64,000 bases of DNA from Patescibacteria group bacterium (GTDB taxonomy: Bacteria > Patescibacteriota > Patescibacteriia > Patescibacteriales > JAQTRU01): NCBI GenBank assembly GCA_041645555.1, contig JBAZPX010000001.1, positions 204,731 to 268,730 of the forward strand, read 5' to 3'. The notes beneath the pieces were generated by a model. That model had not been told where the DNA came from. It saw nothing but the letters and a program-made list of their open reading frames with translations, and did no database searches. Position numbers and translations under genes: made by a program. Shown here piece by piece: positions 4,028 to 62,619 of the stretch (positions within the stretch are counted from its first letter, which is position 1; every line of letters starts with the position of its first letter).

Positions 4028-4140
4028 TGTCATTCCCGCGAAAGCGGGAATCCAGGAGTGAACCATACGAATTAGACTTTGCAGAAAAGAAGATTAAAAT
4101 CACGCAACCCTGGATTCCGGCTCGGAGGCCGGAATGACAA
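4028..4140. mobile_element. MITE-like element, family 2 (tgtcattcccgcgaaagcgggaatccagg ... cctggattccggctcggaggccggaatgaca)
   Basis: About 30-nt terminal inverted repeats, each itself a hairpin. The element is 113 bp with no ORF. Confidence 0.7.
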
Positions 4141-4213
4141 GGGGTGGGAATGGGAGATAGTACGGAATATCCGATTCGCGAGCTAAATAAAATTATTTTT
4201 TATAAAATATATA

Positions 4214-8151: not shown

Positions 8152-8200
8152 GATGGGTCAAGGGCTGGATTTTTATCTGTTTTTTTGGTAAAATTTGTAG

Positions 8201-8235
8201 TAGGATTATTAAGATTTTTGGGATTCTTAGGATTT
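8201..8235. repeat. Intergenic word array (taggatt/aagattt words) upstream of murB
   Basis: taggattattaagatttttgggattcttaggattt. The same word set recurs downstream of murB at 9180-9222. Confidence 0.8.
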
Positions 8236-8237
8236 GT

Positions 8238-9176
8238 ATGGGAAATATTCAAAAAGACATACCTTTAGCCCAGTTTACCACTTTCCGGATTGGCGGGCCG
8301 GCTAAGTTTTTTATTGAAGTAAAAGAGAAAGATAATTTGCTGGAGGCGATAAAATGGGCTAAGGAGAGTAAAGAAAAATTTTATATTTTGGGCGGGGGCA
8401 GCAATATAATAATAAACGATAAGGGAGTTGACGGTTTAGTGATAAAAATGGCTAATGATAATATTACGGTTCATGGCGAAAGAATGGAGACCGGAGCCGG
8501 AGCGACTTTAGCCCGGGCTGTGCTCCTCGCCACTGGTGAAAATTTGTCCGGTTTGGAATGGGCGGCCGGCATTCCCAGAGCGACAATCGGCGGAGCGATT
8601 CGGGGAAATGCCGGCGCTTTTAGCTTGTCTATGGCTGAAGTAGCGGAGACGGTTGAAGTCTTTAATGTTAAAAAGGAAAAATTTGAATTATTCAGCCATA
8701 AAGACTGCCGGTTTGATTATCGCGAAAGTATTTTTAAGAAAGATAATAGTTATTTAATTTGGAACGTTGTTCTCAAACTGGAAAAGGGAAATAAAATCCA
8801 GATTCAATCCGCGGTAAATAAATTTTTAGAATCAAGGCAGAGCCGGCAGCCAAAACTTCCCAGCGCCGGTTCGGTTTTTAAAAATTTGCCGCTTGATTAT
8901 TTAAAAGAGAACAATGCGAACATAGCGGACTTAGCCAACAAGGCCGGCGTTGTTAAAGAAGGCAAAGTCGGAGCCGGCTGGCTGATAGAGCTGGCTGGGC
9001 TTAAGGGCAAAAAAATCGGGGGAGCAAAAGTGAGCTTAGAGCACGCTAATTTTATTGTTAACACCAGCCAAGCCACGGCCGAAGATATTGTGATGCTAAT
9101 TAGTTATATTAAGCAGCAAGTCAGGAACAGGTTTAATATCCAGTTGCAGGAAGAAGTACAGTATTTAGGGTTTTGA
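8238..9176 (+). CDS. murB: UDP-N-acetylenolpyruvoylglucosamine reductase MurB
   Basis: FAD-binding N-terminus (FTTFRIGGPAKFF, LGGGSNII) and C-terminal MurB motifs (PSAGSVFKNL, HANFIVN). Confidence 0.9.
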   Translation: MGNIQKDIPLAQFTTFRIGGPAKFFIEVKEKDNLLEAIKWAKESKEKFYILGGGSNIIINDKGVDGLVIKMANDNITVHGERMETGAGATLARAVLLATGENLSGLEWAAGIPRATIGGAIRGNAGAFSLSMAEVAETVEVFNVKKEKFELFSHKDCRFDYRESIFKKDNSYLIWNVVLKLEKGNKIQIQSAVNKFLESRQSRQPKLPSAGSVFKNLPLDYLKENNANIADLANKAGVVKEGKVGAGWLIELAGLKGKKIGGAKVSLEHANFIVNTSQATAEDIVMLISYIKQQVRNRFNIQLQEEVQYLGF

Positions 9177-9179
9177 GGC

Positions 9180-9222
9180 GGGATTCTTGAGATTATTAAG
9201 ATCTTTAGGATCCTTAGGATTT
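9180..9222. repeat. Intergenic word array (period about 9, gattcttRa / ctttaggat)
   Basis: gggattcttgagattattaagatctttaggatccttaggattt, read directly from the sequence. Confidence 0.8.
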
Positions 9223-9239
9223 AATTTTCTAAATTTTTG

Positions 9240-13120: not shown

Positions 13121-14584
13121 ATGGATATTGTCATAGATTTTTCATCTGTCTACAATTTTTTTAATACCAGCCCGGATTTACTGATGTGGCGGACTTTTTT
13201 ATTGTTCGGCTGGCTGCCGATTTCTTTGGCTTTCCTTTGGGGCGCTAAAGAAAGTTGGATTTTTTACATAAAGACTCAATGGGATAAGACAAATAAATAT
13301 GTTCTTTTAGCCGTTGATATCCCGCGCAATAACGAGCAGACGATTAAGGCGGTGGAAAATTTATTCACTTATATCGGCGGCGCCCACAAAACCCATACTT
13401 TAATTGAAAAATATTGGGAGGGACAATTTCAAATACCTTTCAGTTTTGAGATTATTAGCATAGAGGGTTACACCCAGTTTTTAATCCGCCCCCACGTGAA
13501 ATTCCGGGATATGGTGGAAGCCGCGGTTTATTCCCAATATCCGGATGCGGAAATTACCGAAGTTGATGATTACACCGAGGGCATGCCCGATAAATTTCCG
13601 GACGAAGTTTATGATATCTGGGGGTGCGAATTTATCCAGGCTAAAAATCCTATCTATCCGATTAAGACTTATGAAGAATTTGAGCAACAAATGGGGCCGC
13701 CCGAGGCCCAATATAAAGACACCATGGCAACTTTAATGGATTTATGCAGCAGTTTAAAAAAGGGCGAACAGTTTTGGTTCCAGATATTAATTAAGCCTAT
13801 GGGTTTTGACTGGCCGGAGGAAGGGGAAAAAGAAGTAAAGAGAATTTTGAAGGAAAAGCTGCCGGCTACTTTCGCCAATAATGTAATAGATGGAATTATT
13901 GGTTGGATGGGAAATATTAGCGAATCTATTTATAGTATTTGGGGGGATATTGAGGAAAAAGACGAAAAAGACGACGCTTTAAAAATGATGAATTTGAAGC
14001 CGAAAGAAAAAAAACAGGTAGAAGCTATTCAAAACAAGACCAGTAAATTAGGTTTTCAATTTAAATCAAGGTTTATTTATGTCGCCAAAAAAGAAATAAT
14101 GAACAAACCTAAGGTCAGGGAAGGATTTATCGGCTATATGAAGCAATTTATGGATTTAGACCTGAATAATTTAAAACCAGACATGGATTTAACGGCGACC
14201 TCTGCAGATTATTTTTTTACGGAGTACCGCGCCAATGTAAGAAAGAATAAAATTATGCGGGCTTATAAAGGCAGGAGCACTACCCGCGGAAGAAATATGG
14301 GCATAATGAATATAGAGGAGCTGGCCACTCTTTGGCATTTCCCAATAGAGTTCGTGGTTAAAGCGCCGATGATCCAAAAAGCGCCGGGAAGAAAATCCGG
14401 TCCGCCCATGCAACTGCCGATTGGCGAAGAAATAGTAAGCGAAGCTACGCTTGAACCGGAGTTTATGGAAGAGGGAAACAAAAATAAGAATGGAAAAAAA
14501 GAATTACGGGACGAAGTTATGACTAAAGAGGAGAATAATCCGAAAAAAAATGCTTCCCCGCCGGCTAACTTGCCGTTTGCCTAA
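13121..14584 (+). CDS. Membrane-anchored protein of unknown function (two N-terminal TM helices, large soluble domain, Lys/Glu-rich tail)
   Basis: Long uninterrupted ORF. The ATG at 13121 is preferred because the TTG at 13100 lies inside the word array. Confidence 0.7.
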   Translation: MDIVIDFSSVYNFFNTSPDLLMWRTFLLFGWLPISLAFLWGAKESWIFYIKTQWDKTNKYVLLAVDIPRNNEQTIKAVENLFTYIGGAHKTHTLIEKYWEGQFQIPFSFEIISIEGYTQFLIRPHVKFRDMVEAAVYSQYPDAEITEVDDYTEGMPDKFPDEVYDIWGCEFIQAKNPIYPIKTYEEFEQQMGPPEAQYKDTMATLMDLCSSLKKGEQFWFQILIKPMGFDWPEEGEKEVKRILKEKLPATFANNVIDGIIGWMGNISESIYSIWGDIEEKDEKDDALKMMNLKPKEKKQVEAIQNKTSKLGFQFKSRFIYVAKKEIMNKPKVREGFIGYMKQFMDLDLNNLKPDMDLTATSADYFFTEYRANVRKNKIMRAYKGRSTTRGRNMGIMNIEELATLWHFPIEFVVKAPMIQKAPGRKSGPPMQLPIGEEIVSEATLEPEFMEEGNKNKNGKKELRDEVMTKEENNPKKNASPPANLPFA

Positions 14585-14594
14585 AAAATTAACT

Positions 14595-14664
14595 GGGATT
14601 CTTGAGACTCTTAGGATTATTAGGATAGTGTTATTTTCAAAATCCTAATCCCGAGTACTCGGGA
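14595..14664. repeat. Intergenic word array plus 16-nt perfect palindrome tcccgagtactcggga
   Basis: gggattcttgagactcttaggattattaggat faces aaaatcctaatcc. The palindrome with its flank (tcccgagtactcgggactaa) is repeated at 23132-23151. Confidence 0.8.
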
Positions 14665-16373: not shown

Positions 16374-17132
16374 ATGAATAATTTAGTTAAAAAAATAGCT
16401 AATTTCCTGGATCTAAAAGAATTAGGCAAAAGAGCCGCTACGGTTATTGTTTTAACTCTGACCGCAATTATTACGGTTTGGGTTTACGCGGCGTTTGTTG
16501 AGCCTTCAGTTGGCCCCAATTCTTCCGACCAGGATTTCGCCCAGAATATTTTAGGCAATAATGACGCTAATAACGATTTTAGCTCTTCTAATGTCGCTTC
16601 TAACGCCGACGGCAGTATTATTGAAAGAGAAGAGTATATCCAGACAGGAATCGGCACCAATGCGAGCGCGACTACGACACCCTCCGCAGCTTCCTCGCTT
16701 TGGAGCGGGTTGAAGTATATAGAAGGTAATATGTTGAACAAAAAAAAGTATTATTTGACTTCGGCCACGATGGAGGGCGGTGGGCCTTTGACCGCCTGCG
16801 CCTCTGGGTACCACTTCGCTTCATTATGGGAATTAATTGATCTTAATCAACACACTTACAACTCATCTCTTGGGATGTATTTGGATGATTCCGGGTTGTA
16901 TGGTCCTCCAGTCGGCACACTCGGGTGGATCAGGACCGGTGGTGTCTCTAATACCACAGTTACTGTAGGTACGGGAAATTGCGCCGCCTGGACATCAACT
17001 AGCGGAGCTCATTATGGAACTATGGCAAGGATAACAACATCATGGGCAGGGGGCGCCACAACCATCTCTCCTTGGGAAGGCGACATAGACTTTTGCAACA
17101 CACAGCACAGAGCGTGGTGCATGCAAAATTAA
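16374..17132 (+). CDS. Membrane-anchored surface protein: conserved N-terminal module plus Cys-containing C-terminal domain
   Basis: The N-terminal ~110 aa are homologous to the 44261 CDS (AAFVEP..GPNSSDQDFAQNILGNNDANNDFSSSNVASNADGSIIEREEY). Terminator ccgcagtc...gactgcgg-tttt at 17208-17237. Confidence 0.75.
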   Translation: MNNLVKKIANFLDLKELGKRAATVIVLTLTAIITVWVYAAFVEPSVGPNSSDQDFAQNILGNNDANNDFSSSNVASNADGSIIEREEYIQTGIGTNASATTTPSAASSLWSGLKYIEGNMLNKKKYYLTSATMEGGGPLTACASGYHFASLWELIDLNQHTYNSSLGMYLDDSGLYGPPVGTLGWIRTGGVSNTTVTVGTGNCAAWTSTSGAHYGTMARITTSWAGGATTISPWEGDIDFCNTQHRAWCMQN

Positions 17133-21249: not shown

Positions 21250-22674
21250 ATGCCAAAAATAAAAGGAAAAATAGAGAAATCTTCCCTTTCAAAAAAAAAC
21301 AATAAAGAAGCCGCTCCTTTAGTTGTTGAAGAGGAGGCCAAGTTTCCCCTAAAAATAGGCCAAGTTTACCAACCGTCTTCTTCTGTGGATAATGCCAGTC
21401 CTGGCCCTAAAAAGCAGAATAAAAATCCTAAAAAATTAGAATCAAGCCCGCTTCGGCCGCTTAAGCGACCCCGCTTAGGGGGAGAGGCTGGCTCAGCCTC
21501 GTTAAGTCTAAGCGAGCCAGCCGAAAAAGAGGCAAAAAAAAATATGAATCCTCCAAAAATAAATTTATACCGCAAAATAGCCCTGAGTTTTATTGTTTTA
21601 ACGGTTATTTTACTGGGTGTTATTTTTTATTTTTCTTTCGTTAAGTTAAATATCGTTTTGATACCGGCGCAGGAAAGGTTAAGCGACAGTTTATCCATAG
21701 ATATTTATGGGAGCGGCAGCGAGCCGGCCGTATTAGAGAAATCTCTGGCTGGCATTGTGGAGCAAACAAGCATTGAGGAGAAAAATACCTATTCCGCCAG
21801 CGGATCAGAAAAGATCGGCGAAGAAGTGACAGGCAAGGTTACGGTTATAAATAATTACAATAAAAGTCAGCCGTTGGTGGCGACCACCAGATTGCTGTCT
21901 TCGGATAATAAATTGTTCCGGATAAAAAATACAATCAATGTGCCGGCAGGAGGATCGCAGGAAGTAGAAATATATGCTGATCTAGTCAATGAAGATATGG
22001 CTATCGGCCCGACAAAATTTACGATTCCTGGCTTATGGGCCGGGCTGCAGGATAAAATTTATGCTGAAAGCAAGGAAAAATTTGTTTATGGGCAGCAGGC
22101 AAAAAAATATATTCAGCAGTCAGATATTGACCAGGCGACTAAGGATTTAAAAAGAAGCCTATTGGAAAAAGCAAAGAACGAAATAGGCGAGAACTATAAA
22201 GGTTATAATGAAGTTATTTATAGTGTTGATGAAAATACGATCAGCACCGAGGTCGGCGGGAAAGTGGGCGAAGAGAAGGATAAATTTGATGTAAGCATGA
22301 AGGCGATGGTAACGATTGTCGCTTTTTCGGGCGACGAGGCGGGGAAAATGGGAAAGGAAAAATTAGCGGAAGTGGTGCCGGATAATAAGGAACTCATAGA
22401 ATTTAAGCCGGAAGAGGCAAGTTACAGTTTAAACAGTTTTGATGTGGCGGCGGGCCGGGCAACGGTTAACGCTACTTTTGAAGGCAAGATGAGCTTAAAA
22501 AGCGAAGCGGATATTATTGACCGGCAGAAAATCGTTAATTTAACGCGCGAGCAACTAGAAGATTATTTAAGCGGCTTTAAGGAAATTGCCGGTTATGAAA
22601 TTAATTTCTTCCCGTCTTTTATAGACAAGGTGCCGAATTTAGCAGACAGGATAAATATAGAAGTTAGGGAGTAA
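21250..22674 (+). CDS. Membrane-anchored protein of unknown function (disordered N-terminus, one TM helix, large extracytoplasmic domain)
   Basis: AGGAGG RBS before the ATG and a TM segment IALSFIVLTVILLGVIFYFSF. I recognise no family. Confidence 0.75.
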   Translation: MPKIKGKIEKSSLSKKNNKEAAPLVVEEEAKFPLKIGQVYQPSSSVDNASPGPKKQNKNPKKLESSPLRPLKRPRLGGEAGSASLSLSEPAEKEAKKNMNPPKINLYRKIALSFIVLTVILLGVIFYFSFVKLNIVLIPAQERLSDSLSIDIYGSGSEPAVLEKSLAGIVEQTSIEEKNTYSASGSEKIGEEVTGKVTVINNYNKSQPLVATTRLLSSDNKLFRIKNTINVPAGGSQEVEIYADLVNEDMAIGPTKFTIPGLWAGLQDKIYAESKEKFVYGQQAKKYIQQSDIDQATKDLKRSLLEKAKNEIGENYKGYNEVIYSVDENTISTEVGGKVGEEKDKFDVSMKAMVTIVAFSGDEAGKMGKEKLAEVVPDNKELIEFKPEEASYSLNSFDVAAGRATVNATFEGKMSLKSEADIIDRQKIVNLTREQLEDYLSGFKEIAGYEINFFPSFIDKVPNLADRINIEVRE

Positions 22675-23856: not shown

Positions 23857-25641
23857 ATGGATAAAGAAAAAAATTTAGAGATTATTCGGCATAGCTTAAG
23901 CCATGTTATGGCCGCGGCGGTTAAGGAGTTTTGGCCAAATGTGAAGTTCGCTATCGGGCCGGCGTTAGAAAACGGCTTTTATTATGATTTTGATTTTGGC
24001 AAAGAAAAAGTAAGCGAGGAAGATTTAGCCAAGATTGAGAAAAAAATGGAGGAGATTATAAAAAAAGACCTGAAATTTGAAAGGTCAGAAGTAAAAATTA
24101 ATGAAGCGATTGCCAGAGAAAAAAAATCCGAGCAGATTTATAAGGGAGAACTGATAAAAGATTTAAAAAAAGACCCAGCCTTCGCTAAAGCCTCGGCGGG
24201 CAAGGGGGGGGAAGTTAGTTATTATAAACTTGGCGAATTTGAAGATTTATGCCGCGGACCGCACGTGGCTTCAAGCGGAAAGCTGAATAATGCCGGCTTT
24301 AAACTGACTAAACTGGCCGGAGCCTATTGGCGGGGAGATGAAAAAAACGCTATGCTTACCCGGATTTACGCCGTGGCCTTCGCGAATAAAAAAGAGCTGG
24401 GAGATTATTTAAAGATGATGGAAGAGGCAGAAAAAAGAGACCATCGTAAATTAGGGAAAGAATTGGATTTGTTTGTGTTTTCCGATTTAGTCGGACCAGG
24501 TTTACCGTTATACACTTTTAAAGGCACGATTATTCGCCGTGAAATTATTAATTTTTCTAATGAGCTCCAGCGTGAAATTGGCTACCAGGAAGTGCATACG
24601 CCGAACATGAACAAAGCGGAACTTTTTAAAGTATCAGGCCATTATGATAAATACAAAGAAGATATGTTCCGAGTTGTTTCCAATTATACTGATGAAGAAT
24701 ATTTTCTCAAGCCCATGAATTGCCCGCAACACACGCAGATTTACGCCTCAGAAATGAGAAGCTATCGCGATTTGCCTATTAGGATAGCGGATTTTGCGAA
24801 TCTTTATCGTGACGAAAAGCCCGGCGAGCTTTCCGGCTTGATTCGCCTGCGCTCATTCTGCCAGGACGATGGCCATTGTTTTTGCCGGCCGGATCAGATT
24901 AAAAAAGAATTTCAATCTGTCCTTGGCGCCATTAAAAAAGCCTTGGCTGTTTACAAAATGGATTATCATATTCGTCTATCCCTCTGGGACCCAAGCCAAC
25001 CGGATAAATATTTAGGCGAACCGGCAGTGTGGGAAAAATCTCAAGCGATATTAAAAGATATTTTGGAAGAAAATAAATTAACTTATATCACCAGTATCGG
25101 CGAGGCGGCCATTTATGGCCCAAAAATGGACATTCTAACCAAGGATTCGCTCGGTCGTGAATGGCAAATATCCACTATTCAGCTTGATTTCATTATGCCG
25201 CAAAGATTCGGCTTGTCTTATATTGACGAGAATGGCAAGCAAAAGACGCCGGTTATGATCCATCGGGCGATTGTGGGCTCGCCAGAAAGATTTTTAGGCA
25301 TTTTAATCGAGCACTATGCCGGCGCGTTTCCGGTCTGGCTTTCGCCCGTTCAGGTAAAGATTATTTCTGTCGGAGAAGGCCATATTGAATTTTGCCAAAA
25401 GTTGGCCGGGGATTTTAGAGAAGAAAAAATAAGGGTAGAAGTGGATGGAGACAATGAAACCGTCGGCAATAAAATCAGGAAAGCGGTTGGCGAAAAAACA
25501 CCTTATGTTTTAGTAGTCGGGGACAAAGAAATGGAGTCTAAAAAATTAGCGGTGCGCGACCGGGGGTCTAGAGAAACCAGAGAAATAGAGAAAGATAAAT
25601 TTATTGCTGAAGTGAAAGAAAAGATTAAAAACAGGAAATAA
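23857..25641 (+). CDS. thrS: Threonine--tRNA ligase (no N-terminal TGS domain)
   Basis: Editing-domain RHSLSHVMAAAV, class II core motifs (DHRKLGKELDLF, FRDEKPGELSGLIRLRSF, HRAIVGSPERF) and the anticodon-binding domain. Confidence 0.95.
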   Translation: MDKEKNLEIIRHSLSHVMAAAVKEFWPNVKFAIGPALENGFYYDFDFGKEKVSEEDLAKIEKKMEEIIKKDLKFERSEVKINEAIAREKKSEQIYKGELIKDLKKDPAFAKASAGKGGEVSYYKLGEFEDLCRGPHVASSGKLNNAGFKLTKLAGAYWRGDEKNAMLTRIYAVAFANKKELGDYLKMMEEAEKRDHRKLGKELDLFVFSDLVGPGLPLYTFKGTIIRREIINFSNELQREIGYQEVHTPNMNKAELFKVSGHYDKYKEDMFRVVSNYTDEEYFLKPMNCPQHTQIYASEMRSYRDLPIRIADFANLYRDEKPGELSGLIRLRSFCQDDGHCFCRPDQIKKEFQSVLGAIKKALAVYKMDYHIRLSLWDPSQPDKYLGEPAVWEKSQAILKDILEENKLTYITSIGEAAIYGPKMDILTKDSLGREWQISTIQLDFIMPQRFGLSYIDENGKQKTPVMIHRAIVGSPERFLGILIEHYAGAFPVWLSPVQVKIISVGEGHIEFCQKLAGDFREEKIRVEVDGDNETVGNKIRKAVGEKTPYVLVVGDKEMESKKLAVRDRGSRETREIEKDKFIAEVKEKIKNRK

Positions 25642-32685: not shown

Positions 32686-32865
32686 CAGATTGCCTCGCTT
32701 TCGGTTAAAGTAAAGTTTGTGCAAGGTACGTTGACTGCTTTATAGGTGAATTGAATTATTAAGTTCTAATGAGCGTTAAAACAAAAAAGCCGACCCTCCT
32801 TGGTTAGGCTTATTTCTAGTTTTTTCTTATTTCACTTTAACAGACTTCTTATAAAAAATCAACTA

Positions 32866-32962
32866 CCTCACCCTCCACCTCGGCGAGCCTTCGGCCCGCT
32901 TCGCCAAAGCTCCAGCGAGGCGAGCGAGACGGGCCGCCCCTCTCCTAAGTAGGAGAGGGGAT
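32866..32962. repeat. GC-rich palindromic element, family 3 (tacctcaccc...; hairpin cccctctcctaagtaggagagggg)
   Basis: Shares the tacctcaccc end and the ctctcctaRktaggagagggg hairpin with the in-frame element in mnmA (58810-58887). Confidence 0.65.
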
Positions 32963-34757: not shown

Positions 34758-34841
34758 TGCCCAGGGAGAGAATCGAACTCTCATGGACTTGCGTCCACAC
34801 GATTTTGAGTCGTGCGCGTCTACCAGTTCCGCCACCAGGGC
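34758..34841 (-). tRNA. tRNA-Leu (anticodon CAA), class II with long variable arm; CCA not encoded
   Basis: Minus strand reads GCCCTGGTGGCGGAACTGGTAGACGCGCACGACTCAAAATCGTGTGGACGCAAGTCCATGAGAGTTCGATTCTCTCCCTGGGCA. T-arm GAGAG-TTCGATT-CTCTC, anticodon loop CTCAAAA, one U-U mismatch in the acceptor stem. Confidence 0.85.
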
Positions 34842-36250: not shown

Positions 36251-36262
36251 AATGTAGTATTT

Positions 36263-36340
36263 GGGATTTTTAGGATTTTTACGATTCTTGAGATTCTTAA
36301 GATCCTAATAATCCCAAGAATCCTAAGAATCACAATAATC
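36263..36340. repeat. Intergenic period-9 word palindrome (gattcttRa / aatcctaag)
   Basis: gggatttttaggatttttacgattcttgagattcttaagatcc faces aatcccaagaatcctaagaatcacaataatc. Confidence 0.85.
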
Positions 36341-37242: not shown

Positions 37243-37332
37243 TATAAAAACAAAATAATAAGATAATATAAAAAGAGCCGTCTGTTAAGGCGGTTTTCTT
37301 TTAGGAAGTTAAAAGTTTATAAAGTTAAATTG

Positions 37333-37418
37333 TGGGATCTTTAGGATTCTTACGATTTTTGGGATTCTTGGGATTTTTTAAAAACTCTATCTTAAGAATC
37401 CTAAGAATCTCAAGAATC
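37333..37418. repeat. Intergenic period-9 word palindrome (same word family as 36263-36340)
   Basis: gggatctttaggattcttacgatttttgggattcttgggatt faces cttaagaatcctaagaatctcaagaatcc. Confidence 0.85.
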
Positions 37419-43848: not shown

Positions 43849-44250
43849 GTCATTGCGAGTCCCGAAGCCTCGGGACGAAGCAATCTCTGGTTAAATAGAA
43901 AAACATGTTAAACGAACGATACTATTTTGTTTATATAAACACCAATAAAACCCACAACGTTTTTTATACCGGAGTGACCAATAATTTATTAAATAGGAAT
44001 TACCAGCATAAGAGCAAAGAGAATAAATTAAATTTCACAGCCAAATATAAGGTAAATAAATTAGTCTATTGCGAGACGTTTTCCGATATCCGTGATGCCA
44101 TTGCCAGAGAAAAGCAAATCAAAGGTGGTTCCAGAAAAGATAAAATCAACCTTATAATTAAATTAAACCCGGAGTGGAAAGATTTAAGCTTGGATATGTA
44201 AAACCAGAGATTGCTTCGTCTCCCGCCTCGGCGGGATCCTCGCAATGACA
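43849..44250 (+). mobile_element. IR-bounded element carrying a GIY-YIG nuclease gene
   Basis: The left arm tgtcattgcgag...cgaagcaatctctggtt is the reverse complement of the right arm aaccagagattgcttcg...ctcgcaatgaca. The ORF stop abuts the right arm. Confidence 0.75.
43905..44201 (+). CDS. GIY-YIG nuclease family protein (98 aa)
   Basis: YFVYINTNKTHNVFYTGVTNNLLNRNYQHK matches the GIY-(X)n-YIG pattern, with REKQIKGGSRKDK at the C-terminus. Confidence 0.85.
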   Translation: MLNERYYFVYINTNKTHNVFYTGVTNNLLNRNYQHKSKENKLNFTAKYKVNKLVYCETFSDIRDAIAREKQIKGGSRKDKINLIIKLNPEWKDLSLDM

Positions 44251-44260
44251 AGGGAAAATA

Positions 44261-45277
44261 ATGGATAAGCAAACCCTGAAAACTAAAATTAAAGCCCAAG
44301 CCAAGAAAATCGCTTGGCGGGCAATCACCACGGTTATTTTAACTCTAACCGCGGTTATTACGGTTTGGGCTTATGCCGCGTTTGTTGAACCCTTAGTCGG
44401 ACCGAATTCCTCTGACCAGGATTTTGCCCAGAATATTTTAGGCAATAACGACGCTAACAATGATTTTAGTTCTTCTAACGTCGCTTCTAACGCTGACGGC
44501 AGTATTATCGAAAGAGAAGAATATTTGCAAACCCAAATCGGCACTTATGCTGACGCCACGACTACGCCGAGTGCGGCAAGTTCGGTGTTCGCGGCGTTGA
44601 AGGGATTGGATTCTTCGTATCAGGAATACACTAGCGGAAGTGGGAACTGGACGGCTCCGGCTGGTGTCTATTTGATTAATGTGCTCCTTGTCGCCGGAGG
44701 CGGAGGTGGCGGTTCTACAGTGGCAAATTCAGGAGCAAGTGGCGGAGGCGGAGGTGGTGAAACTTTTTCTATGATGAATTATAAAGTTGTGCCCGGAACT
44801 GCTTATGCATATGCAGTAGGCGCTGGAGGTTCCGGAGCAACAGGAAACGACGCGGATGGTTCAAATGGCTCAACCTCCACCTTCATGGGTTATTCTGTTG
44901 CGGCTGGTTATGGTGGGAAGAGGGGAACGGTTATGACCGCCGGAAATGGTGGCGGGGTGGGTGGCGGAACAGCCGGCGGTACTCCAGGAAGTGGTACGAC
45001 GATGGGAGGAGCACTTTTTTCGAGGACTGGCGGAGGAGCAGGGAGCAATGGCAATAGCGCCTCCGCCGCTGGAAGCAGTATCGGTTCTGGCGGTGGACTA
45101 ACGGCTCCGGGCGGCGCAAGCTATCGTTCATCTCCGGATGGTCCTTATACGAATGGGGTTGGAATAAATGCACCTGCCAATAGTGGTGCCGGCGGCAGCG
45201 GAGCAACTAATTCGAACGCAGGCGGGATTTTGCCTGGAGGAAATGGTGGTTCTGGTTATATTTTAATAACTTGGTGA
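44261..45277 (+). CDS. Membrane-anchored surface protein: conserved N-terminal module plus glycine-rich C-terminal domain
   Basis: The N-terminus is homologous to the 16374 CDS. The C-terminus has GGGGGGS.../GGNGGSGYILITW glycine-rich repeats. Confidence 0.8.
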   Translation: MDKQTLKTKIKAQAKKIAWRAITTVILTLTAVITVWAYAAFVEPLVGPNSSDQDFAQNILGNNDANNDFSSSNVASNADGSIIEREEYLQTQIGTYADATTTPSAASSVFAALKGLDSSYQEYTSGSGNWTAPAGVYLINVLLVAGGGGGGSTVANSGASGGGGGGETFSMMNYKVVPGTAYAYAVGAGGSGATGNDADGSNGSTSTFMGYSVAAGYGGKRGTVMTAGNGGGVGGGTAGGTPGSGTTMGGALFSRTGGGAGSNGNSASAAGSSIGSGGGLTAPGGASYRSSPDGPYTNGVGINAPANSGAGGSGATNSNAGGILPGGNGGSGYILITW

Positions 45278-45313: not shown

Positions 45314-45514
45314 TGTCATTGCGAGGAAGGAGTTCCACAGAATTGCGGGACGACTGACGAAGCAATCTAAGGTTAGCTGGAAGTAACAAGAAAATTAAAA
45401 AACATCATTTTATCCGAATAAATACTAATGATAGACATTTAACAGAATCAGACTTTATACCTTTAAACCAGAGATTGCTTCGGCTCCCGCCTCGGCGGGA
45501 TCCTCGCAATGACA
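45314..45514 (+). mobile_element. ORF-less derivative of the GIY-YIG element
   Basis: The right arm at 45466-45514 differs at 1 of 49 nt from 44202-44250. The left arm starts tgtcattgcgag...gaagcaatctaaggtt. The interior is only ~90 nt. Confidence 0.7.
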
Positions 45515-50980: not shown

Positions 50981-51450
50981 ATAATATCAGGGTAAGCGAA
51001 TAGTCGATCGCTTGAGAAAACTTGAGCGGTAGGAAAGTCCGGACTCCCGCCTACGCTAAAGCTTCGGCGGGCAAGTCGTAAAGATTTTGCCTGCTAAGTG
51101 ATTTAGTTAGGTGCCATGGCAGCGGGTAACGCCCGCCAGAAGTAATTCTAGGGAAAGTGCCACAGAGACTATACTAATCAATGCGAAGCATTGGTCAAAC
51201 GTGAAAAGTTCTAGGGTGTGTAAATTGATCTCGGATATCCGTTTAATTTACGCTACTTGGATCGTCCTCTGGCAACAGAGTGACGTGGTAAACCCTGCCT
51301 GAAGCAAGAGCAAACCCCGCTCAGAATGTTAAAGCATTTGAGCGGGATGAAAAGTGGCTCGCTTGATCCCGAGAGCGATTTCGGGACTAGATAGATGACT
51401 ATTTAAAACAAAATCCGGCTTACAGCTTGCCCTGATATTAGTGGAATTTA
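50981..51450 (+). ncRNA. rnpB: RNase P RNA (bacterial type A-like), enlarged
   Basis: GGAAAGTCCGGAC (P4 5' strand), GGTGCC...GGGTAACGCCC, AGTGCCACAGAGAC, and AGATAGATGACTAT...ACAAAATCCGGCTTAC (P4 3' strand). P1 pairs aaattccaataatatcagggtaagc with gcttgccctgatattagtggaattt. P2 pairs aatagtc with gactatt. The ends are approximate. Confidence 0.85.
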
Positions 51451-58024: not shown

Positions 58025-59278
58025 ATGGCTGAAACAAAAAACAAAAAAATTATTATGGCGATGTCCCCGCGCAAATCCCTTCGGGATTCTGCGGGGCAAG
58101 CTGGCGGCAATAAAAAAAAGCACATAATTATAGCGATGTCGGGCGGAGTTGATTCTTCGGTGGCTGCAAAATTATTAAAGGACCAGGGGCATGACCTTTT
58201 GGGAATCTTTTTGCATTTCTGGAAGGATGAAAATAATCCCCCTAACCCCCTTTATCAAGGGGGTGCGGCAGAGAATAAATGCTGTTCGCTTGAAGCTTTA
58301 ATGGACGCCAGACGGGTTTGCTCCAATATCGGCATACCTTTCTATACCCTGAATTTCAGCAGTATTTTTAAAAAAGAGGTGGTCGATGACTTTCTTGATG
58401 AATATAAAAAGGGCAATACTCCTAATCCCTGTATCCGTTGCAACAAATTGGTTAAGCTGGGTTTGCTTGTCGAGCGAGCGAAAAAATTAGGGTTTGACTA
58501 TGTGGCCAGCGGCCACTATGTGAAAAACCAAAAACCAAAAACCAAAAACCAAAAATATAAATTATATAGAGCGAAAGATAAGAACAAAGACCAATCATAT
58601 TTTTTATACACTCTGACGCAAGAGCAATTGGAACATCTGCTTTTCCCTTTGGGGAATTATATAAAAGAGGGGGTGAGAAAAATAGCCGGAGCTTCCGGTC
58701 TGCCGGTGGCAGCGAAAAAAGAAAGCCAGGAAATTTGTTTTATTTCCGGCAAAAGCCACAATGATTTTTTAAAAAGATATCTTAAATTAAAACCGGGGCC
58801 AATAAAACTATTACCTCACCCTGGCCCTCTCCTAATTAGGAGAGGGGAGGAGCTCCGCCAGCCGGCGGAGCGAAGGGGTGAGGTAATTGGTAAGCACCAG
58901 GGTCTGCCTCTTTATACCATCGGCCAAAGGAAGGGAGTGGAGATCGGAGGTGTCGGCCCGTTTTATGTAGCTAAATGCGATTATAAAAGCAATACTTTGT
59001 ATGTGGTGAAGGACGGCGATGACCCGGCTCTGTATGATAGTAAACTAATAGCCGGCAATGTCAACTGGATAGCCGGGCAAGAGCCAAAAATACCTCTTAC
59101 CTGCGAAGCGGTAATCAGATATAGGCACAAACCCACGAAGTGTAAAGTTACAAAGTCAAAAGTTAAAAGTAGTTATATAGTAAAATTTAAAAAGCCGCAG
59201 AGGGCGATTACGCCTGGGCAAAGCGTAGTTTTTTATAAGAAAGATGAGGTTTTGGGCGGCGGGGTTATTAGTCCTTAG
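58025..59278 (+). CDS. mnmA: tRNA 2-thiouridine(34) synthase MnmA, carrying several in-frame insertions
   Basis: PP-loop AMSGGVDSS, NPCIRCN, SGHYV, KDQSYFLY, QEICF, HQGLPLYTIGQRKG and C-terminal ITPGQSVVFY all align with E. coli MnmA. Confidence 0.9.
   Translation: MAETKNKKIIMAMSPRKSLRDSAGQAGGNKKKHIIIAMSGGVDSSVAAKLLKDQGHDLLGIFLHFWKDENNPPNPLYQGGAAENKCCSLEALMDARRVCSNIGIPFYTLNFSSIFKKEVVDDFLDEYKKGNTPNPCIRCNKLVKLGLLVERAKKLGFDYVASGHYVKNQKPKTKNQKYKLYRAKDKNKDQSYFLYTLTQEQLEHLLFPLGNYIKEGVRKIAGASGLPVAAKKESQEICFISGKSHNDFLKRYLKLKPGPIKLLPHPGPLLIRRGEELRQPAERRGEVIGKHQGLPLYTIGQRKGVEIGGVGPFYVAKCDYKSNTLYVVKDGDDPALYDSKLIAGNVNWIAGQEPKIPLTCEAVIRYRHKPTKCKVTKSKVKSSYIVKFKKPQRAITPGQSVVFYKKDEVLGGGVISP
58810..58887 (+). 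repeat. 78-nt element bounded by perfect 12-nt inverted repeats, in frame inside mnmA
   Basis: attacctcaccc ... gggtgaggtaat, with internal hairpin gccctctcctaattaggagagggg. It replaces ~5 residues of the E. coli alignment with 26 residues. Confidence 0.75.
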
Positions 59279-59344
59279 GTGTTAGCTTTTAGCTTCTAGA
59301 GCGGTATTTTGTATCTCTATTGTTTTATGGTATAATATTATTAT

Positions 59345-59442
59345 TAAGATTCTTAAGACTCTTGGGATATTTATGATTTTTGAGAAACTCGGAACTTTGA
59401 AATCCTAAGAATCTTAAGAATCGCGATAATCCTAAAAATCTC
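59345..59442. repeat. Period-9 word palindrome between an extended -10 element (59327-59335) and the first Cys-rich paralog
   Basis: aagattcttaagactcttgggat ... aaatcctaagaatcttaagaatcgcgataatcc. TGGTATAAT lies just upstream, so the palindrome is probably in the 5' UTR. Confidence 0.8.
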
Positions 59443-59457
59443 AAATAAAAATTCCCC

Positions 59458-61008
59458 ATGCTTCCAAAAAAATTCTCTCTACTTCTAATCTTCTCTATTA
59501 TCCTAACCCTAGGCCTATCCATATCCCTGGGTTCTCTTTTGGCGGCCTGGACGGCCCCGGCTTCTAGTCCTCCGGAAGGTAATATTGCCGCCCCGATTAA
59601 TACGGGCGCGACTTTACAAGCAAAACAAGTCGGTTTGTGGCTTAACTATTTACCATTGGATGAGGGTGGTAGCGCCAACGGTTTACTTGTCCAATATGGC
59701 AATGTCGGCATTGGCACAACCACCCCCCAAGCTAAATTAGAAGTGGTAGGCAATATTATTGCTGATGCCCCAACGGCCAGTAATGAAGTAGCGACAAAAG
59801 GATATGTGGACGCATCGGGAGGCAGCGCCGGTCTTGATCAATATTATGAATCCTGGTGCGCGGCTCACCAAGGCCAGAAATGCGCGCGAAGCGGAACTAT
59901 GGATTATAAATGTATGGGTGATTTCTGCACTAAAGCCGGTATTTCCAATGATATGGATGAAGATGGAGTTACGGGAGCGACTGATTGCAATGACAGTCCT
60001 GGGAGTGGCTCGACCATCGGCGCGGCGGCTGACGGCACTTGCGATGGTGACGCGGATGGCAAAATTGACGTATCCGCCTATCTCACTACTCCCAAGCCGG
60101 CCGAGGCTGATTGTTACGACAGTAATCCGGCCAAATATTCTTGTTTGAGCAATGGCACGACTTGCAGCAGCGGAATTTATTGCGCTTCCACTTATTGCGT
60201 AGATGGATATTGTTGCGAGAGCACCTGCACCGGCCAGACTTGTCAGACTTGCGGAATCTATTCCAGCGCCGGAGCTGGTAAGTGCGGTTATGTAAATAAT
60301 TCTTTGCAAGATCCGCATAATAACTGCAGCCAAGGCTCAACGGCCAGTGATGGGTGCAGTTCTAATAATTGCAGCGGTACTGGCTATTCTTGCGGCACGC
60401 CGCAAACTTCAGGATATGGCGGTTGCCCAACATGTGGATATTGTAATGGCGCGAGCATTGCTTGCACGGCTTATATTAATGGTTTTTATGACTCCAGGTT
60501 GCAGGGATGCAAAACCTGTAATGGAACCATAGGAGGTTTTAATACTATGCCCGATACTAATTGGGGCGCTAACCAATATAACTGTGCTGGTTCCTCTTCC
60601 CGTTGCGTTTCCGGAAATTGCCGGGCTTGTGACGGTTATCTTTATAGCGATGGTTGCAATGGTTGTGCGGGCCAGGGCGGACAAGCCTGTTGGCGCGCTA
60701 TAATGCAAGGATCATGCGATGATAGTTGTAATAACTATGGCGGCTGTATCGCGGGAGGATGGAATGATGATGCTAGCTGTTCAGTTTGCAAGCACATAGA
60801 ACCCGCTGCTACAGAATGTATAACTCATCAGTATGATTTTTTCCCTGCCAATTATTATTATAATTTTAGTTACGGTTCCAGCACTAAATACTGCTATCGA
60901 AGGGATACTGCCCAGACTCCCAATATTAATTGTAGTCTTTCCGTAAGCCCTTATTGTTCCGGAGCGGGGTGCAGTGGATACATAAGGTTATGTGTGTGTA
61001 AGTGGTAA
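59458..61008 (+). CDS. Membrane-anchored cysteine-rich surface protein, paralog 1
   Basis: Signal anchor LLLIFSIILTLGLSISLGSLLAAW, then the conserved block TAPASSPPEGNIAAPIN...GNVGIGTTTPQAKLEVVGN, then a Cys-rich C-terminus. Confidence 0.85.
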   Translation: MLPKKFSLLLIFSIILTLGLSISLGSLLAAWTAPASSPPEGNIAAPINTGATLQAKQVGLWLNYLPLDEGGSANGLLVQYGNVGIGTTTPQAKLEVVGNIIADAPTASNEVATKGYVDASGGSAGLDQYYESWCAAHQGQKCARSGTMDYKCMGDFCTKAGISNDMDEDGVTGATDCNDSPGSGSTIGAAADGTCDGDADGKIDVSAYLTTPKPAEADCYDSNPAKYSCLSNGTTCSSGIYCASTYCVDGYCCESTCTGQTCQTCGIYSSAGAGKCGYVNNSLQDPHNNCSQGSTASDGCSSNNCSGTGYSCGTPQTSGYGGCPTCGYCNGASIACTAYINGFYDSRLQGCKTCNGTIGGFNTMPDTNWGANQYNCAGSSSRCVSGNCRACDGYLYSDGCNGCAGQGGQACWRAIMQGSCDDSCNNYGGCIAGGWNDDASCSVCKHIEPAATECITHQYDFFPANYYYNFSYGSSTKYCYRRDTAQTPNINCSLSVSPYCSGAGCSGYIRLCVCKW

Positions 61009-61032: not shown

Positions 61033-62619
61033 ATGCTTCCAAAAAAATTCTCTCTACTTCTAATATTCTCCATTATTCTCACTCTGGGATTATCCATATC
61101 TCTAGGTTCTCTTCTAGCGGCCTGGACCGCTCCGGCTTCTAGTCCTCCGGAAGGTAATATTGCCGCTCCGATAAACACGGGTGCGACTTTACAAGCGAAA
61201 CAAGTCGGTTTATGGCTTAACTATTTACCATTAGATGAGGGTGGTAGCGCCAACGGTTTACTTGTCCAATATGGCAATGTCGGCATTGGCACAACCACCC
61301 CCCAAGCAAAATTAGAAGTAGTAGGCAATATTATTGCTGATGCTCCGACGGCCGGCAACCACTTAGCGACTAAGGCTTATGTGGATGCGGCCGGAGGCGC
61401 TGGAGGTGAATATGTGCAGGGAAATGCGGTTTATTTTACTTCTGGCGGTAATAATTATTATTGCTCCCAACGTTCCGTAAGTTCAAGCGGGGTGGTTACC
61501 ATAAGCAACGTAAACGAGGGGCAGCCTTGTGATATCAATAAGGTGTGTAATTCTGGGCGATGCTCATCTCTCGGTGAATTCGCTACGGCCTGCACTACCA
61601 GTTCCCAATGTTCTTCCGGTTATTGTGTGGATGGATATTGTTGCGATAGCGCTTGCAGCAGCGTTTGCCGGGCCTGTAATGTTTTTGGCAGTTCCGGCAT
61701 TTGTACCAGTATCCCGGTTGGCACAGATCCGGCTAGTGAATGTTCTTTGGTTACCTGTACTAATTATATATATGGCGGGACAAACCCTTCATGCTATAAA
61801 TATGCTAGTGCCAACTCTAACAATGGTATGTGCAACGGAGCTGGTGCTTGTTATACTTCATCGGCTGATTCCTGCACCGGTCAAGGGGGAGCGACTATAA
61901 CTTGCGGTAACACTGGCTGCTGGAAAGCCTGTGTGGCTGATGCCTTAGCGACTTCTTTTGATAATTATAGTGAAGTTTGCCATACCTCCGGTACTCAAAA
62001 TTGCACTAGCGGTCTTGTCTGCGATGCTACTGGCGCCTGTAAATCAGGGGCCGGAGCGGTTTGCACAGCTGATAGCCAGTGTGGTAGTGGCTATTTATGC
62101 GGTGTTGATGCCGATGGCGATAGATATTTAACTAGTGCCACAACCGGTACTTGTGTTTTGGGGACAGCCCATATTGATTGCTGCGACTCCGATTCCGGAG
62201 TACATCCGGGTACTGGGATTAGAAGCACTGCAAGTGCATGCGGTGGATGGGACTTAGATTGCAATGGATCAGTGCAAAAAGATTCTTCGTGTAAGACATG
62301 TACGTCTTGTTCCTTGTGTGGCACCTCTCGTTCGGCTTCATCTGTAGGACAATCCTGTGTGAGTTGCACGGGAGCATCTACTGTTTATGATGGGTGGTCT
62401 CATACTTGCGGCGTTTCAGCCAATTGCGGACAAACTTTCACTCAAAGGGGTTGCAGGCCCAAGGCCGTGAGTTGCCCCACTTGTTATAGTGATTGGCAAC
62501 CTTGGGGTTGTTATCTTCATGATGCAACCGGTTGTGATGTTTGGGGGCCAACCTTTGGAATTTATTTTTGGCAAAATGATTTATGCGATATTGGAGCTCA
62601 AACTTGCGGATGTAATTAG
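61033..62619 (+). CDS. Membrane-anchored cysteine-rich surface protein, paralog 2
   Basis: The first ~112 aa are identical to paralog 1. The Cys-rich C-terminus is different. Confidence 0.85.
   Translation: MLPKKFSLLLIFSIILTLGLSISLGSLLAAWTAPASSPPEGNIAAPINTGATLQAKQVGLWLNYLPLDEGGSANGLLVQYGNVGIGTTTPQAKLEVVGNIIADAPTAGNHLATKAYVDAAGGAGGEYVQGNAVYFTSGGNNYYCSQRSVSSSGVVTISNVNEGQPCDINKVCNSGRCSSLGEFATACTTSSQCSSGYCVDGYCCDSACSSVCRACNVFGSSGICTSIPVGTDPASECSLVTCTNYIYGGTNPSCYKYASANSNNGMCNGAGACYTSSADSCTGQGGATITCGNTGCWKACVADALATSFDNYSEVCHTSGTQNCTSGLVCDATGACKSGAGAVCTADSQCGSGYLCGVDADGDRYLTSATTGTCVLGTAHIDCCDSDSGVHPGTGIRSTASACGGWDLDCNGSVQKDSSCKTCTSCSLCGTSRSASSVGQSCVSCTGASTVYDGWSHTCGVSANCGQTFTQRGCRPKAVSCPTCYSDWQPWGCYLHDATGCDVWGPTFGIYFWQNDLCDIGAQTCGCN

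Follow-up and report, generated by a model that had tools for sequence, protein, structure and literature searches.

A 30–31-nt hairpin inserted in thrS and rnpB of a Patescibacteria bacterium and in genomes of many bacterial phyla

How does one and the same 30-nt hairpin come to lie both within a protein-coding gene and within the gene of a ribozyme? The question is raised by a 64,000-nt stretch of DNA (the window; assembly GCA_041645555.1, contig JBAZPX010000001.1, positions 204,731 to 268,730) from a Patescibacteria (candidate phyla radiation, CPR) bacterium whose genome has a GC content of about 40%. An earlier note on the window had reported a small GC-rich hairpin in the threonyl-tRNA synthetase (ThrRS) gene thrS, in the RNase P RNA gene rnpB and, in a looser form, in mnmA, and had proposed that it was inserted into these essential genes without inactivating them. 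We found that, for thrS and rnpB, the note is correct in its central claim of a hairpin that was inserted into essential genes and is tolerated there, and that the hairpin is a sharply bounded unit of 30–31 nt present in many phyla, a breadth that goes well beyond the note. We consider it probable (roughly 0.6) that the hairpins in thrS and rnpB are both copies of one non-autonomous, mobile element of 30–31 nt that resembles repetitive extragenic palindromes (REPs).

Two copies of one hairpin in the window

The copy in thrS occupies positions 24175–24204 of the plus strand (CCAGCCTTCGCTAAAGCCTCGGCGGGCAAG). Its left boundary is ambiguous by 1 nt (24174), and with the ambiguous base the sequence is cccagccttcgctaaagcctcggcgggcaag. 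The copy in rnpB lies at 51046–51075, also on the plus strand, at the P5/P7 junction of the RNA (CCCGCCTACGCTAAAGCTTCGGCGGGCAAG, the same as cccgcctacgctaaagcttcggcgggcaag). The two copies are identical at 22 of 24 core positions, as the earlier note had it, and even when 3 mismatches are tolerated, the 22-nt core CGCTAAAGCYTCGGCGGGCAAG has exactly two occurrences in the window and none in 100 dinucleotide-preserving shuffles. A masked Hamming scan of the window with the 30-nt consensus, allowing up to 8 mismatches, likewise returned the thrS and rnpB copies only, and the shuffles again gave none. A chance resemblance between the two copies is ruled out by this lack of matches in the shuffles. 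The sequences and coordinates given earlier for all three hairpins were confirmed on direct reading, but the hairpin in mnmA (58065–58100), taken at the time for a third and looser member, fails the consensus scan and is therefore not a member of the family. The rnpB copy is a perfect match to the pan-bacterial consensus, with 0 mismatches once the variable positions are set aside, and has a predicted folding energy of −12.9 kcal/mol. The thrS copy has 2 mismatches to the family consensus, each at a third codon position, and its stem has decayed (−8.1 kcal/mol, z −0.4). The GC skew of the plus strand, on which both copies lie, is positive across the whole window.

The host gene thrS (23857–25641, plus strand) encodes a protein of 594 residues that aligns to ThrRS in Pfam and the PDB and has no TGS domain. 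The insert encodes residues 107–116, PAFAKASAGK, and stands opposite an 11-residue gap in the Staphylococcus aureus enzyme. Of the 120 ThrRS orthologues aligned, all but two (118) are empty at this site, and PAFAKASAGK is found in the window protein alone. The second filled protein, P0024, carries the variant PTFAEASAGE at the same position. Because the nearest relatives of P0024 (P0037 and P0046) are 95% identical to it and have no insert, and because P0024 belongs to a different clade from the window protein, the element entered the same codon position of thrS at least twice, independently. The same two facts rule out a single ancient insertion followed by losses. A third orthologue, P0117, has a compensated-stem variant of the element (CCCTCCTCCGCTGAAGCTTCGGAGGATAAA) in a different loop of ThrRS.

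The relatives of P0024 also reveal the structure of the insertion at the nucleotide level. The empty site reads ...GCCAAG/GGCGAAACTTCC..., and the filled site reads ...ACCAAA/CCCACCTTCGCTGAAGCTTCGGCGGGCGAAG/GGCGAAAC-ACA.... The insertion is 31 nt long and is not accompanied by a target duplication, and a few bases farther on a 1-nt deletion restores the reading frame (GETS to GRNT). We also considered whether a 6-nt target duplication gave rise to the left arm of the hairpin, which is ruled out as no CCCRCC is present in the empty thrS sites. In an AlphaFold2 model of the window ThrRS (mean predicted local distance difference test score, pLDDT, 83.8), the insert lies between a helix (residues 94–105) and a strand (residues 119–125) with a local pLDDT of 63–77. 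The model thus predicts a surface loop, with the remainder of the ThrRS fold intact.

The gene rnpB (50988–51438, plus strand) encodes a bacterial type A RNase P RNA (RF00010, 174.8 bits, model positions 1–367, not truncated). At Rfam gathering thresholds, this RNA and one tRNA are the only RNA families called in the 64-kb window. The element directly follows the 5′ strand of P4/P5 and the bases after it fall outside the alignment to the RF00010 model. In the three closest relatives, at loci L129 and L130 (91% anchor-protein identity) and L131 (82%), the element is absent from rnpB and only about 10 A-rich bases separate P5 from P8, whereas the window has an insert of about 66 nt at this junction, made up of the element and 44 more bases, all of which the relatives lack. 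Two other loci (L128 and L139) have an unrelated GC hairpin at the same junction. The 44-nt extension (51076–51119, plus strand) is predicted to pair back onto the element, and the minimum free energy helix has 28 bp, including 6 G-U pairs (z −2.1). Tentatively, the extension may be a diverged inverted second unit, but its similarity to an inverted copy of the element is not significant (reached in 110 of 2000 shuffles), and we dropped that assignment and retain a predicted helix only.

Aligning orthologues, a check suggested with the original observation, thus gave sites that are empty in some relatives for thrS, for rnpB and for mnmA. The empty sites in the orthologues of thrS and rnpB rule out ancestral sequence, and the hairpin is inserted, as had been claimed. 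Also in line with the claim that the host genes were not inactivated, both thrS and rnpB look intact by Pfam, by PDB alignment, by the full-length RF00010 match and by the AlphaFold2 model.

A hairpin family spanning many phyla

We scanned one genome per species with the pattern CGCTRAAGCYTCGGCGGGC(N)AAG, in line with the motif search that the earlier note had recommended for the genome and its relatives, and obtained 123 copies in at least 119 loci from many phyla. All 123 copies have the same sharp boundaries, with the consensus CCCGCCTT-CGCTRAAGCTTCGGCGGGC(R)AAG, and are embedded in unrelated flanks. In the unit of 30–31 nt, a GC stem of 6 bp (consensus CCCGCC/GGCGGG) closes a conserved loop of 14 nt, and a single-stranded CAAG tag forms the 3′ end. 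The loop, U-W-CGCURAAGCU-W-C, is near-invariant across phyla. The predicted fold has the 6-bp stem, a 3×3 internal loop, 2 bp, a tetraloop and the free CAAG tail. No conserved target sequence was seen in the flanks of the 123 copies: the logo of the left flank is flat, and on the right a bias is limited to the first base 3′ of the unit, which is C in 70% of copies.

Among the matches listed, Patescibacteria, from many classes, and Bacteroidota provide most of the carriers, and the Bacteroidota include the cultured Chryseolinea serpens DSM 24574, Flavihumibacter petaseus NBRC 106054, Niastella soli and Imperialibacter. Scattered carriers belong to Acidobacteriota, Chloroflexota, Planctomycetota, Verrucomicrobiota, Proteobacteria and Desulfobacterota (the isolate Geomesophilobacter sediminis), and no cyanobacterial genome is among the matches listed. 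The carrier loci span 32–68% GC. A 31-nt tail variant makes up 31 of the 50 Bacteroidota copies and 3 of the 41 Patescibacteria copies, and because of this phylum-level substructure one recent cross-phylum sweep does not explain the family. A plasmid or virus as the vector was rejected: PLSDB and the GenBank phages gave no real matches, and IMG/VR gave 1 match among 2.9 million contigs. No description of the element turned up when the full-text literature was searched with its sequence, its peptides and the underlying concept, and the family is apparently undescribed, which the earlier note had suspected. At four Chryseolinea loci (L035, L037, L088 and L090) the unit regularly has a conserved extension before it, TTGAACCGCC, which suggests a longer, lineage-specific version of the element.

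Picking units by their loop sequence alone gave 85 distinct units. Diverged members in Patescibacteria keep the loop and the CAAG while the two arms change together (CCCTCC/GGAGGG, TCCTCC/GGAGGA, TCGTCC/GGACGA, CCTCCC/GGGAGG and TCCACC/GGTGGA). In 79 of the 85 units, 5–6 of the 6 stem positions pair, versus 2–3 in shifted controls. Four of the six pairs have changed on both sides (21 cells), which none of 500 shuffles reached, and 90.7% of stem cells pair in register versus 29–50% when the partner is slid. The tail is CAAG in 47 of the 85, and CGAA and CAAA are the other common tails. Judged from sequence comparison, the hairpin with its conserved loop and tag is selected. Units also occur in compound arrangements. 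Five loci (L007, L076, L093, L005 and L130) have nested copies, in which one unit lies between the CGCT and the AAAGCT of another, and L054 has a tandem array with a 37-nt period.

About one third of the cross-phylum copies lie inside long open reading frames (ORFs). None of the 41 ORF-embedded copies is in a frame that contains a stop codon, and 26 of the 41 use the PAFAKASAGK frame (p = 2e-7 versus equal use of the four open frames). The others read LPAEALAKAG, LARRSFSEGG or CPPKLQRRR. The housekeeping genes that carry the element include those for a TatD-like protein, a glycosyltransferase and GatB (L005), as well as mnmA (L130). Together with the compensating 1-nt deletion in thrS, these frame statistics imply that the element must be translated, with read-through in the proteins. 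Splicing or translational bypass as a general explanation is ruled out by the same evidence, and the suggestion that the insertions might be self-splicing-like fails against the absence of stop frames, the use of one frame by most ORF copies and the 31-nt thrS copy with its compensated frame.

Copies are enriched in rnpB. For an estimate that does not depend on the element, we assembled 80 syntenic Patescibacteria loci by a neighbouring sugar-transferase gene; 57 of them contain rnpB. Of the 17 family copies in these loci, 7 lie inside Rfam-called rnpB, which makes up about 3% of the sequence (p = 4e-7), and 3–4 further copies lie in probable rnpB. This is more than 10-fold the density in intergenic DNA. 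The rnpB copies occupy at least five positions: the P5/P7 junction (the window and L202), after P8 (L181), P16/17 (L156, L157 and L181), the P2/P4 junction (L154 and L157) and P12 (L089). They are mainly in the sense orientation, with up to two per gene, and the cross-phylum set adds 2 copies in rnpB, one in a Bacteroidales and one in a Giovannonibacteria genome. Genes for RNase P RNA with one or two peripheral copies were noted at L181 (9330–9883), L154 (412–1050), L157, L156, L202, L195, L089 and L092. The rnpB of L154 is 639 nt long, and that of L157 is too interrupted for an Rfam call at the gathering threshold. The description of the insertions as neutral thus suits the thrS copy with its decayed stem but may not hold for the rnpB copies, which are so strongly over-represented. 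Large helix extensions have been noted in CPR RNase P RNAs, with no cause given (PMC8172020).

Genes for tRNA are a second preferred neighbourhood. Of the 123 copies of the cross-phylum set, 11 are no more than 60 nt from a tRNA gene, where 1.1 are expected (p = 3e-8). Some of them overlap the 5′ end of the tRNA, and others follow its 3′ end with a T-run, in the manner of a terminator. The copies are also oriented with respect to base composition: the top strand of the element is on the locally G-rich strand in 83 copies and on the other in 33 (p = 4e-6). The bias is present in each phylum (29:12 in Patescibacteria and 38:12 in Bacteroidota), and the orientation relative to neighbouring genes is random (64:54).

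How the unit may spread, and its known counterparts

What we observed directly is the polymorphism of the insertions, their sharp boundaries, the covariation of the stem, read-through, the occurrence across phyla, the hotspots at rnpB and tRNA genes and the strand bias, and from these we infer a mechanism that acts on single-stranded DNA, along with the kind of enzyme involved. A trans-acting enzyme would recognise the hairpin and its tag as single-stranded DNA, and for this enzyme an HUH/Y1-type transposase, similar to the REP-associated tyrosine transposases (RAYTs) or to those of IS200/IS605, is the obvious model. The unit would enter DNA that is briefly single-stranded at the replication fork, without duplicating its target, with hairpin-prone DNA such as stable-RNA genes favoured as the target. 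Copies would survive only where they are harmless or useful, a selection that is partly borne out by the data. Those in proteins would be read through as a 10-residue surface loop rich in Ala, Ser, Gly and Lys, those in RNase P RNA would give rise to extra peripheral helices, and intergenic ones, which adjoin tRNA genes, could act as terminators when followed by a T-run. HUH/Y1 transposases handle IS200/IS605 elements and REPs as single-stranded DNA hairpins, and a replication-linked orientation bias fits this Y1 chemistry, as known from work on IS608 and REPs.

The closest known kind of element is the REP/REPIN family. REPs are GC-rich imperfect palindromes of 20–40 nt with a tetranucleotide tag at one end; here the unit has 30–31 nt and a 6-bp stem. 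Like the present copies, REPs show no target duplication, occur as singles, inverted pairs and arrays, and can act as terminators. PMC3733652 describes REPs that lie within ORFs, in some cases at an identical site in related species, and gives GTAG and CGTC as the only tags. The tag of our element is instead CAAG (CTTG on the other strand). Its stem is short, and conservation falls on a large loop of 14 nt. REPs are species- or genus-specific, are present in high copy and are mostly extragenic, whereas the element keeps the same sequence across phyla, has a low copy number, resides in ORFs in about one third of cases and has a hotspot in rnpB. A RAYT gene in the genome, usually flanked by REPs, is typical of the family, and none was found in the loci and window ORFs examined. 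As for the inverted doublets known as REPINs, in which REPs replicate, the thrS unit is inserted singly, and the inverted-doublet similarity in rnpB is the non-significant one described above (110 of 2000 shuffles). We do not file our element as a REP, since its tag, its range of hosts, its copy number and placement and its link to a RAYT each either depart from the REP pattern or are equivocal.

Several other systems share particular traits with the element. The Rickettsia palindromic elements (RPEs) are selfish palindromic repeats whose host products gain an extra surface peptide, and they are inserted in frame into protein and RNA genes that stay functional, as found here. RPE-1 in a tRNA pseudouridine synthase gene has been mentioned (PMC3733652). 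RPEs, however, measure about 100–150 bp and are confined to Rickettsia and its relatives, whereas our element, at 30 nt, is about four times smaller and occurs in many phyla.

Small dispersed repeats (SDRs) of Nostoc and other cyanobacteria are said to be mobile-looking hairpins of 21–27 nt that are found nested and have no known transposase. To our knowledge they are the sole precedent for mobile units this small, and we know of no rnpB or tRNA hotspot and no cross-phylum conservation for them. They would resemble our element in size and reportedly in nesting, but have other sequences and are limited to cyanobacteria. Fungal mitochondrial GC clusters, double-hairpin elements and byp elements are short GC-rich palindromes that have spread into functional protein and rRNA genes of an AT-rich genome. 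They are organellar and unrelated in sequence, and byp elements are skipped by the ribosome, whereas our element is read through. Hairpin miniature inverted-repeat transposable elements derived from IS200/IS605 (PATEs) depend on their hairpins, make no target duplication and are biased to the lagging-strand template. The IS200/IS605 type is matched here by the replication-strand bias of 83:33, with the strand assigned by the proxy of GC skew, and by the absence of a duplication at the thrS site. PATEs differ in that they are at least 100 nt long, have two different subterminal hairpins and insert 3′ of a fixed 4–5-nt target; our element has one hairpin and no conserved target.

A number of observations weigh against a mobile REP-like element. 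Two are differences named above, the CAAG tag and the identity of sequence across phyla. The near-invariant loop would not be expected of a plain selfish repeat and is suggestive of a function or of a conserved host factor, and the copy number is low, with 2 copies in 64 kb. No transposase or other recurrent gene family was found near the copies by ORF clustering of about 0.9 Mb of cross-phylum loci, Pfam scans of the genes beside arrays or inverted pairs gave no transposase, and the small ORFs of the window include none, only a GIY-YIG nuclease and a 23S rRNA intervening-sequence (IVS) protein. The replication strand was inferred by GC skew, which is only a proxy. The rnpB excess could reflect positive selection instead of targeting. 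The recurrence at one thrS site can be explained by tolerance of the loop, acting as a selection filter, since in other lineages the same ThrRS loop hosts unrelated inserts of 14–17 residues. Finally, the nested copies may descend from a few composite units, and we therefore did not count them as independent events.

One alternative is that the hairpin is mainly a functional module. Its loop and tag would bind a conserved host factor or form RNA tertiary contacts, for example by kissing through the self-complementary AAGCUU, with positive selection recruiting and retaining it in stable-RNA genes, as added helices of RNase P RNA and as hairpins or terminators beside tRNA genes, and with the protein copies as accidental by-products. 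In favour of such a module are a loop that stays near-invariant across phyla while the stem covaries, the strong over-representation in rnpB and beside tRNA genes, the mainly sense orientation in rnpB, the T-run copies directly after some tRNA 3′ ends and, in the window, an rnpB copy that is intact while the thrS copy has decayed; CPR RNase P RNAs are, moreover, known for large helix extensions (PMC8172020). We keep this alternative alive because plain selfish spread leaves the near-invariance of the loop and the more than 10-fold rnpB excess unexplained, yet as the principal explanation we judge it unlikely. The element sits at no fewer than five different places in rnpB, and most of the rnpB genes in close relatives lack it; RNase P can therefore do without it. 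About one third of the copies are in ORFs and many are in ordinary intergenic DNA, and a replication-strand bias without a transcription bias is unexpected for a function at the RNA level. Nor does the module account for the origin of new copies, and it thus complements a mobile element more than it replaces one.

Another alternative is templated insertion, in which an abundant small hairpin nucleic acid (a retron-like multicopy single-stranded DNA or a reverse-transcribed small RNA, encoded at a conserved locus) would have annealed at replication forks or breaks and become incorporated with no transposase involved. The strand bias resembles that of a lagging template, the insertions lack target duplications, no transposase is nearby, and one sequence recurs in many phyla as if dictated by a conserved template locus. 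However, neither the window nor the examined loci hold a reverse transcriptase or a template locus, the phylum-specific tails and covarying stems look like families whose copies evolve and not like the output of a single template, and microhomology between the element ends and the target is inconsistent; this makes the scheme improbable. An intron-like unit, removed from the RNA by self-splicing or with the help of proteins, or bypassed by the ribosome like the byp elements of yeast mitochondria, and hence indifferent in coding content, would suit a stable hairpin in essential genes that stay intact. We give it very little credence given the absence of stop frames among the 41 ORF copies, the strongly skewed frame use, the net gain of 30 nt and the 1-nt compensation of the 31-nt copy. 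In addition, 30 nt is far below any known self-splicing ribozyme, and Rfam called nothing in the window but RNase P RNA and a tRNA. Ancestral sequence, chance resemblance or an artefact of assembly or binning might be suspected where the carriers are mostly metagenome-assembled genomes and where some taxonomic labels outside the main groups are doubtful (AT-rich, CPR-like flanks). This is already contradicted, and we regard it as hardly credible: no chance matches are expected, orthologues have empty sites, identical filled thrS loci are found in independent ENA and JGI assemblies, the loci cover a broad GC range, and the cultured isolates named above, Geomesophilobacter sediminis included, carry copies. 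A mobile, REP-like element remains our preferred reading of the thrS and rnpB hairpins.

Other hairpins and repeats of the window, and wider meaning

The gene mnmA (58025–59278, plus strand) carries three GC-palindrome insertions (58065–58100, 58238–58264 and 58796–58886). The N-terminal one, CCCCGCGCAAATCCCTTCGGGATTCTGCGGGGCAAG on the plus strand, is translated as SPRKSLRDSAGQ and belongs to another hairpin family. With the thrS/rnpB element it has only the general layout in common, a GC stem with a UUCG loop and a GGGGCAAG tail, and on its flanks the gene start is duplicated (KKIIMAMS / KKHIIIAMS). The same hairpin is found at L129 and L130, as two tandem copies, and is absent from L131, L173 and L177. 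It is a genuine, lineage-specific insertion of a separate family. The other two palindromes are also lineage-specific, and all three are insertions relative to solved structures. At the second and third palindrome sites, the mnmA of L130 has other, independent insertions, among them a nested double copy of the thrS/rnpB family; the mnmA site of that family is filled in L130 and empty in its sister L129.

Further small hairpins are present in the window. One, GTCATTCCCGCGAAAGCGGGAATCCAGG (4029–4056, with a neighbouring hairpin at 4112–4141), was found 18 times in 10 fetched loci, and because these include loci from other phyla (L034, L044 and L107), its recurrence suggests a wider class of ultra-short hairpins. 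A 98-residue GIY-YIG nuclease ORF (43905–44201) is followed at once by a 40-nt hairpin, ATTGCTTCGTCTCCCGCCTCGGCGGGATCCTCGCAATGAC (44210–44249), and a near-identical copy of the latter, with 1 mismatch (45474–45513), follows the next ORF (44261–45277). The nuclease ORF and ATTGCTTCGTCTCCCGCCTCGGCGGGATCCTCGCAATGAC may form a nuclease-plus-hairpin cassette. An intergenic cluster of GC-rich palindromes (32865–32960) holds the loop-like CTTCGCCAAAGCTCCAGCGAGG, and GC hairpins at 21443–21501, inside the ORF 21250–22674, encode ...LRPLKRPRLGGEAGSASLS...; both may be further decayed mini-insertions.

Other repeats are of different kinds. AT-rich arrays with a 9-nt period, composed of GGATTCTTA-like units and their reverse complement and sometimes arranged as inverted pairs, are found in several intergenic regions (8198–8240, 9176–9227, 14582–14633, 36259–36340, 37330–37418 and 59333–59449). 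Three tandem paralogous genes (59458–61008, 61033–62619 and 62684–63519) have 64–92% DNA identity over 300-nt stretches and a common Cys-rich motif. A 235-nt direct repeat with 83% identity links 16447–16681, in the ORF 16374–17132, to 44334–44568, in the ORF 44261–45277. The gene for the 23S rRNA IVS protein (PF05635; 34981–35427) adjoins a long-arm tRNA gene (34758–34841) on the minus strand.

Beyond the two copies in the window, it is possible, although we advance it with some doubt, that there is an unrecognised class of mobile elements across phyla, each a hairpin plus tag of about 30 nt, moved by a conserved enzyme or host process and preferring the hairpin loops of stable-RNA genes. Such a class, which would include other tiny hairpin families of the window, such as GTCATTCCCGCGAAAGCGGGAATCC, that also recur across phyla, would be a main source of lineage-specific helices in RNase P RNA (perhaps also in rRNA) and of short low-complexity loops in Patescibacteria proteins. 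If the reading of the hairpin as a mobile element holds, a 30-nt unit would be mobile across distant phyla with a near-invariant loop, implying a widely conserved mobilising or binding factor. It would provide a source for the RNase P RNA helix extensions and for the many short Ala/Ser/Gly/Lys-rich inserts in conserved Patescibacteria enzymes, and annotators would be warned that peptides like PAFAKASAGK, LPAEALAKAG and LARRSFSEGG stem from a repeat. In cultured Chryseolinea, Niastella, Flavihumibacter and Imperialibacter the mechanism would be directly testable through the association with tRNA genes and rnpB and through the strand bias. The copies would also serve as insertion scans made by nature, marking the places where essential proteins can take 10 residues and a ribozyme a 30-nt helix.

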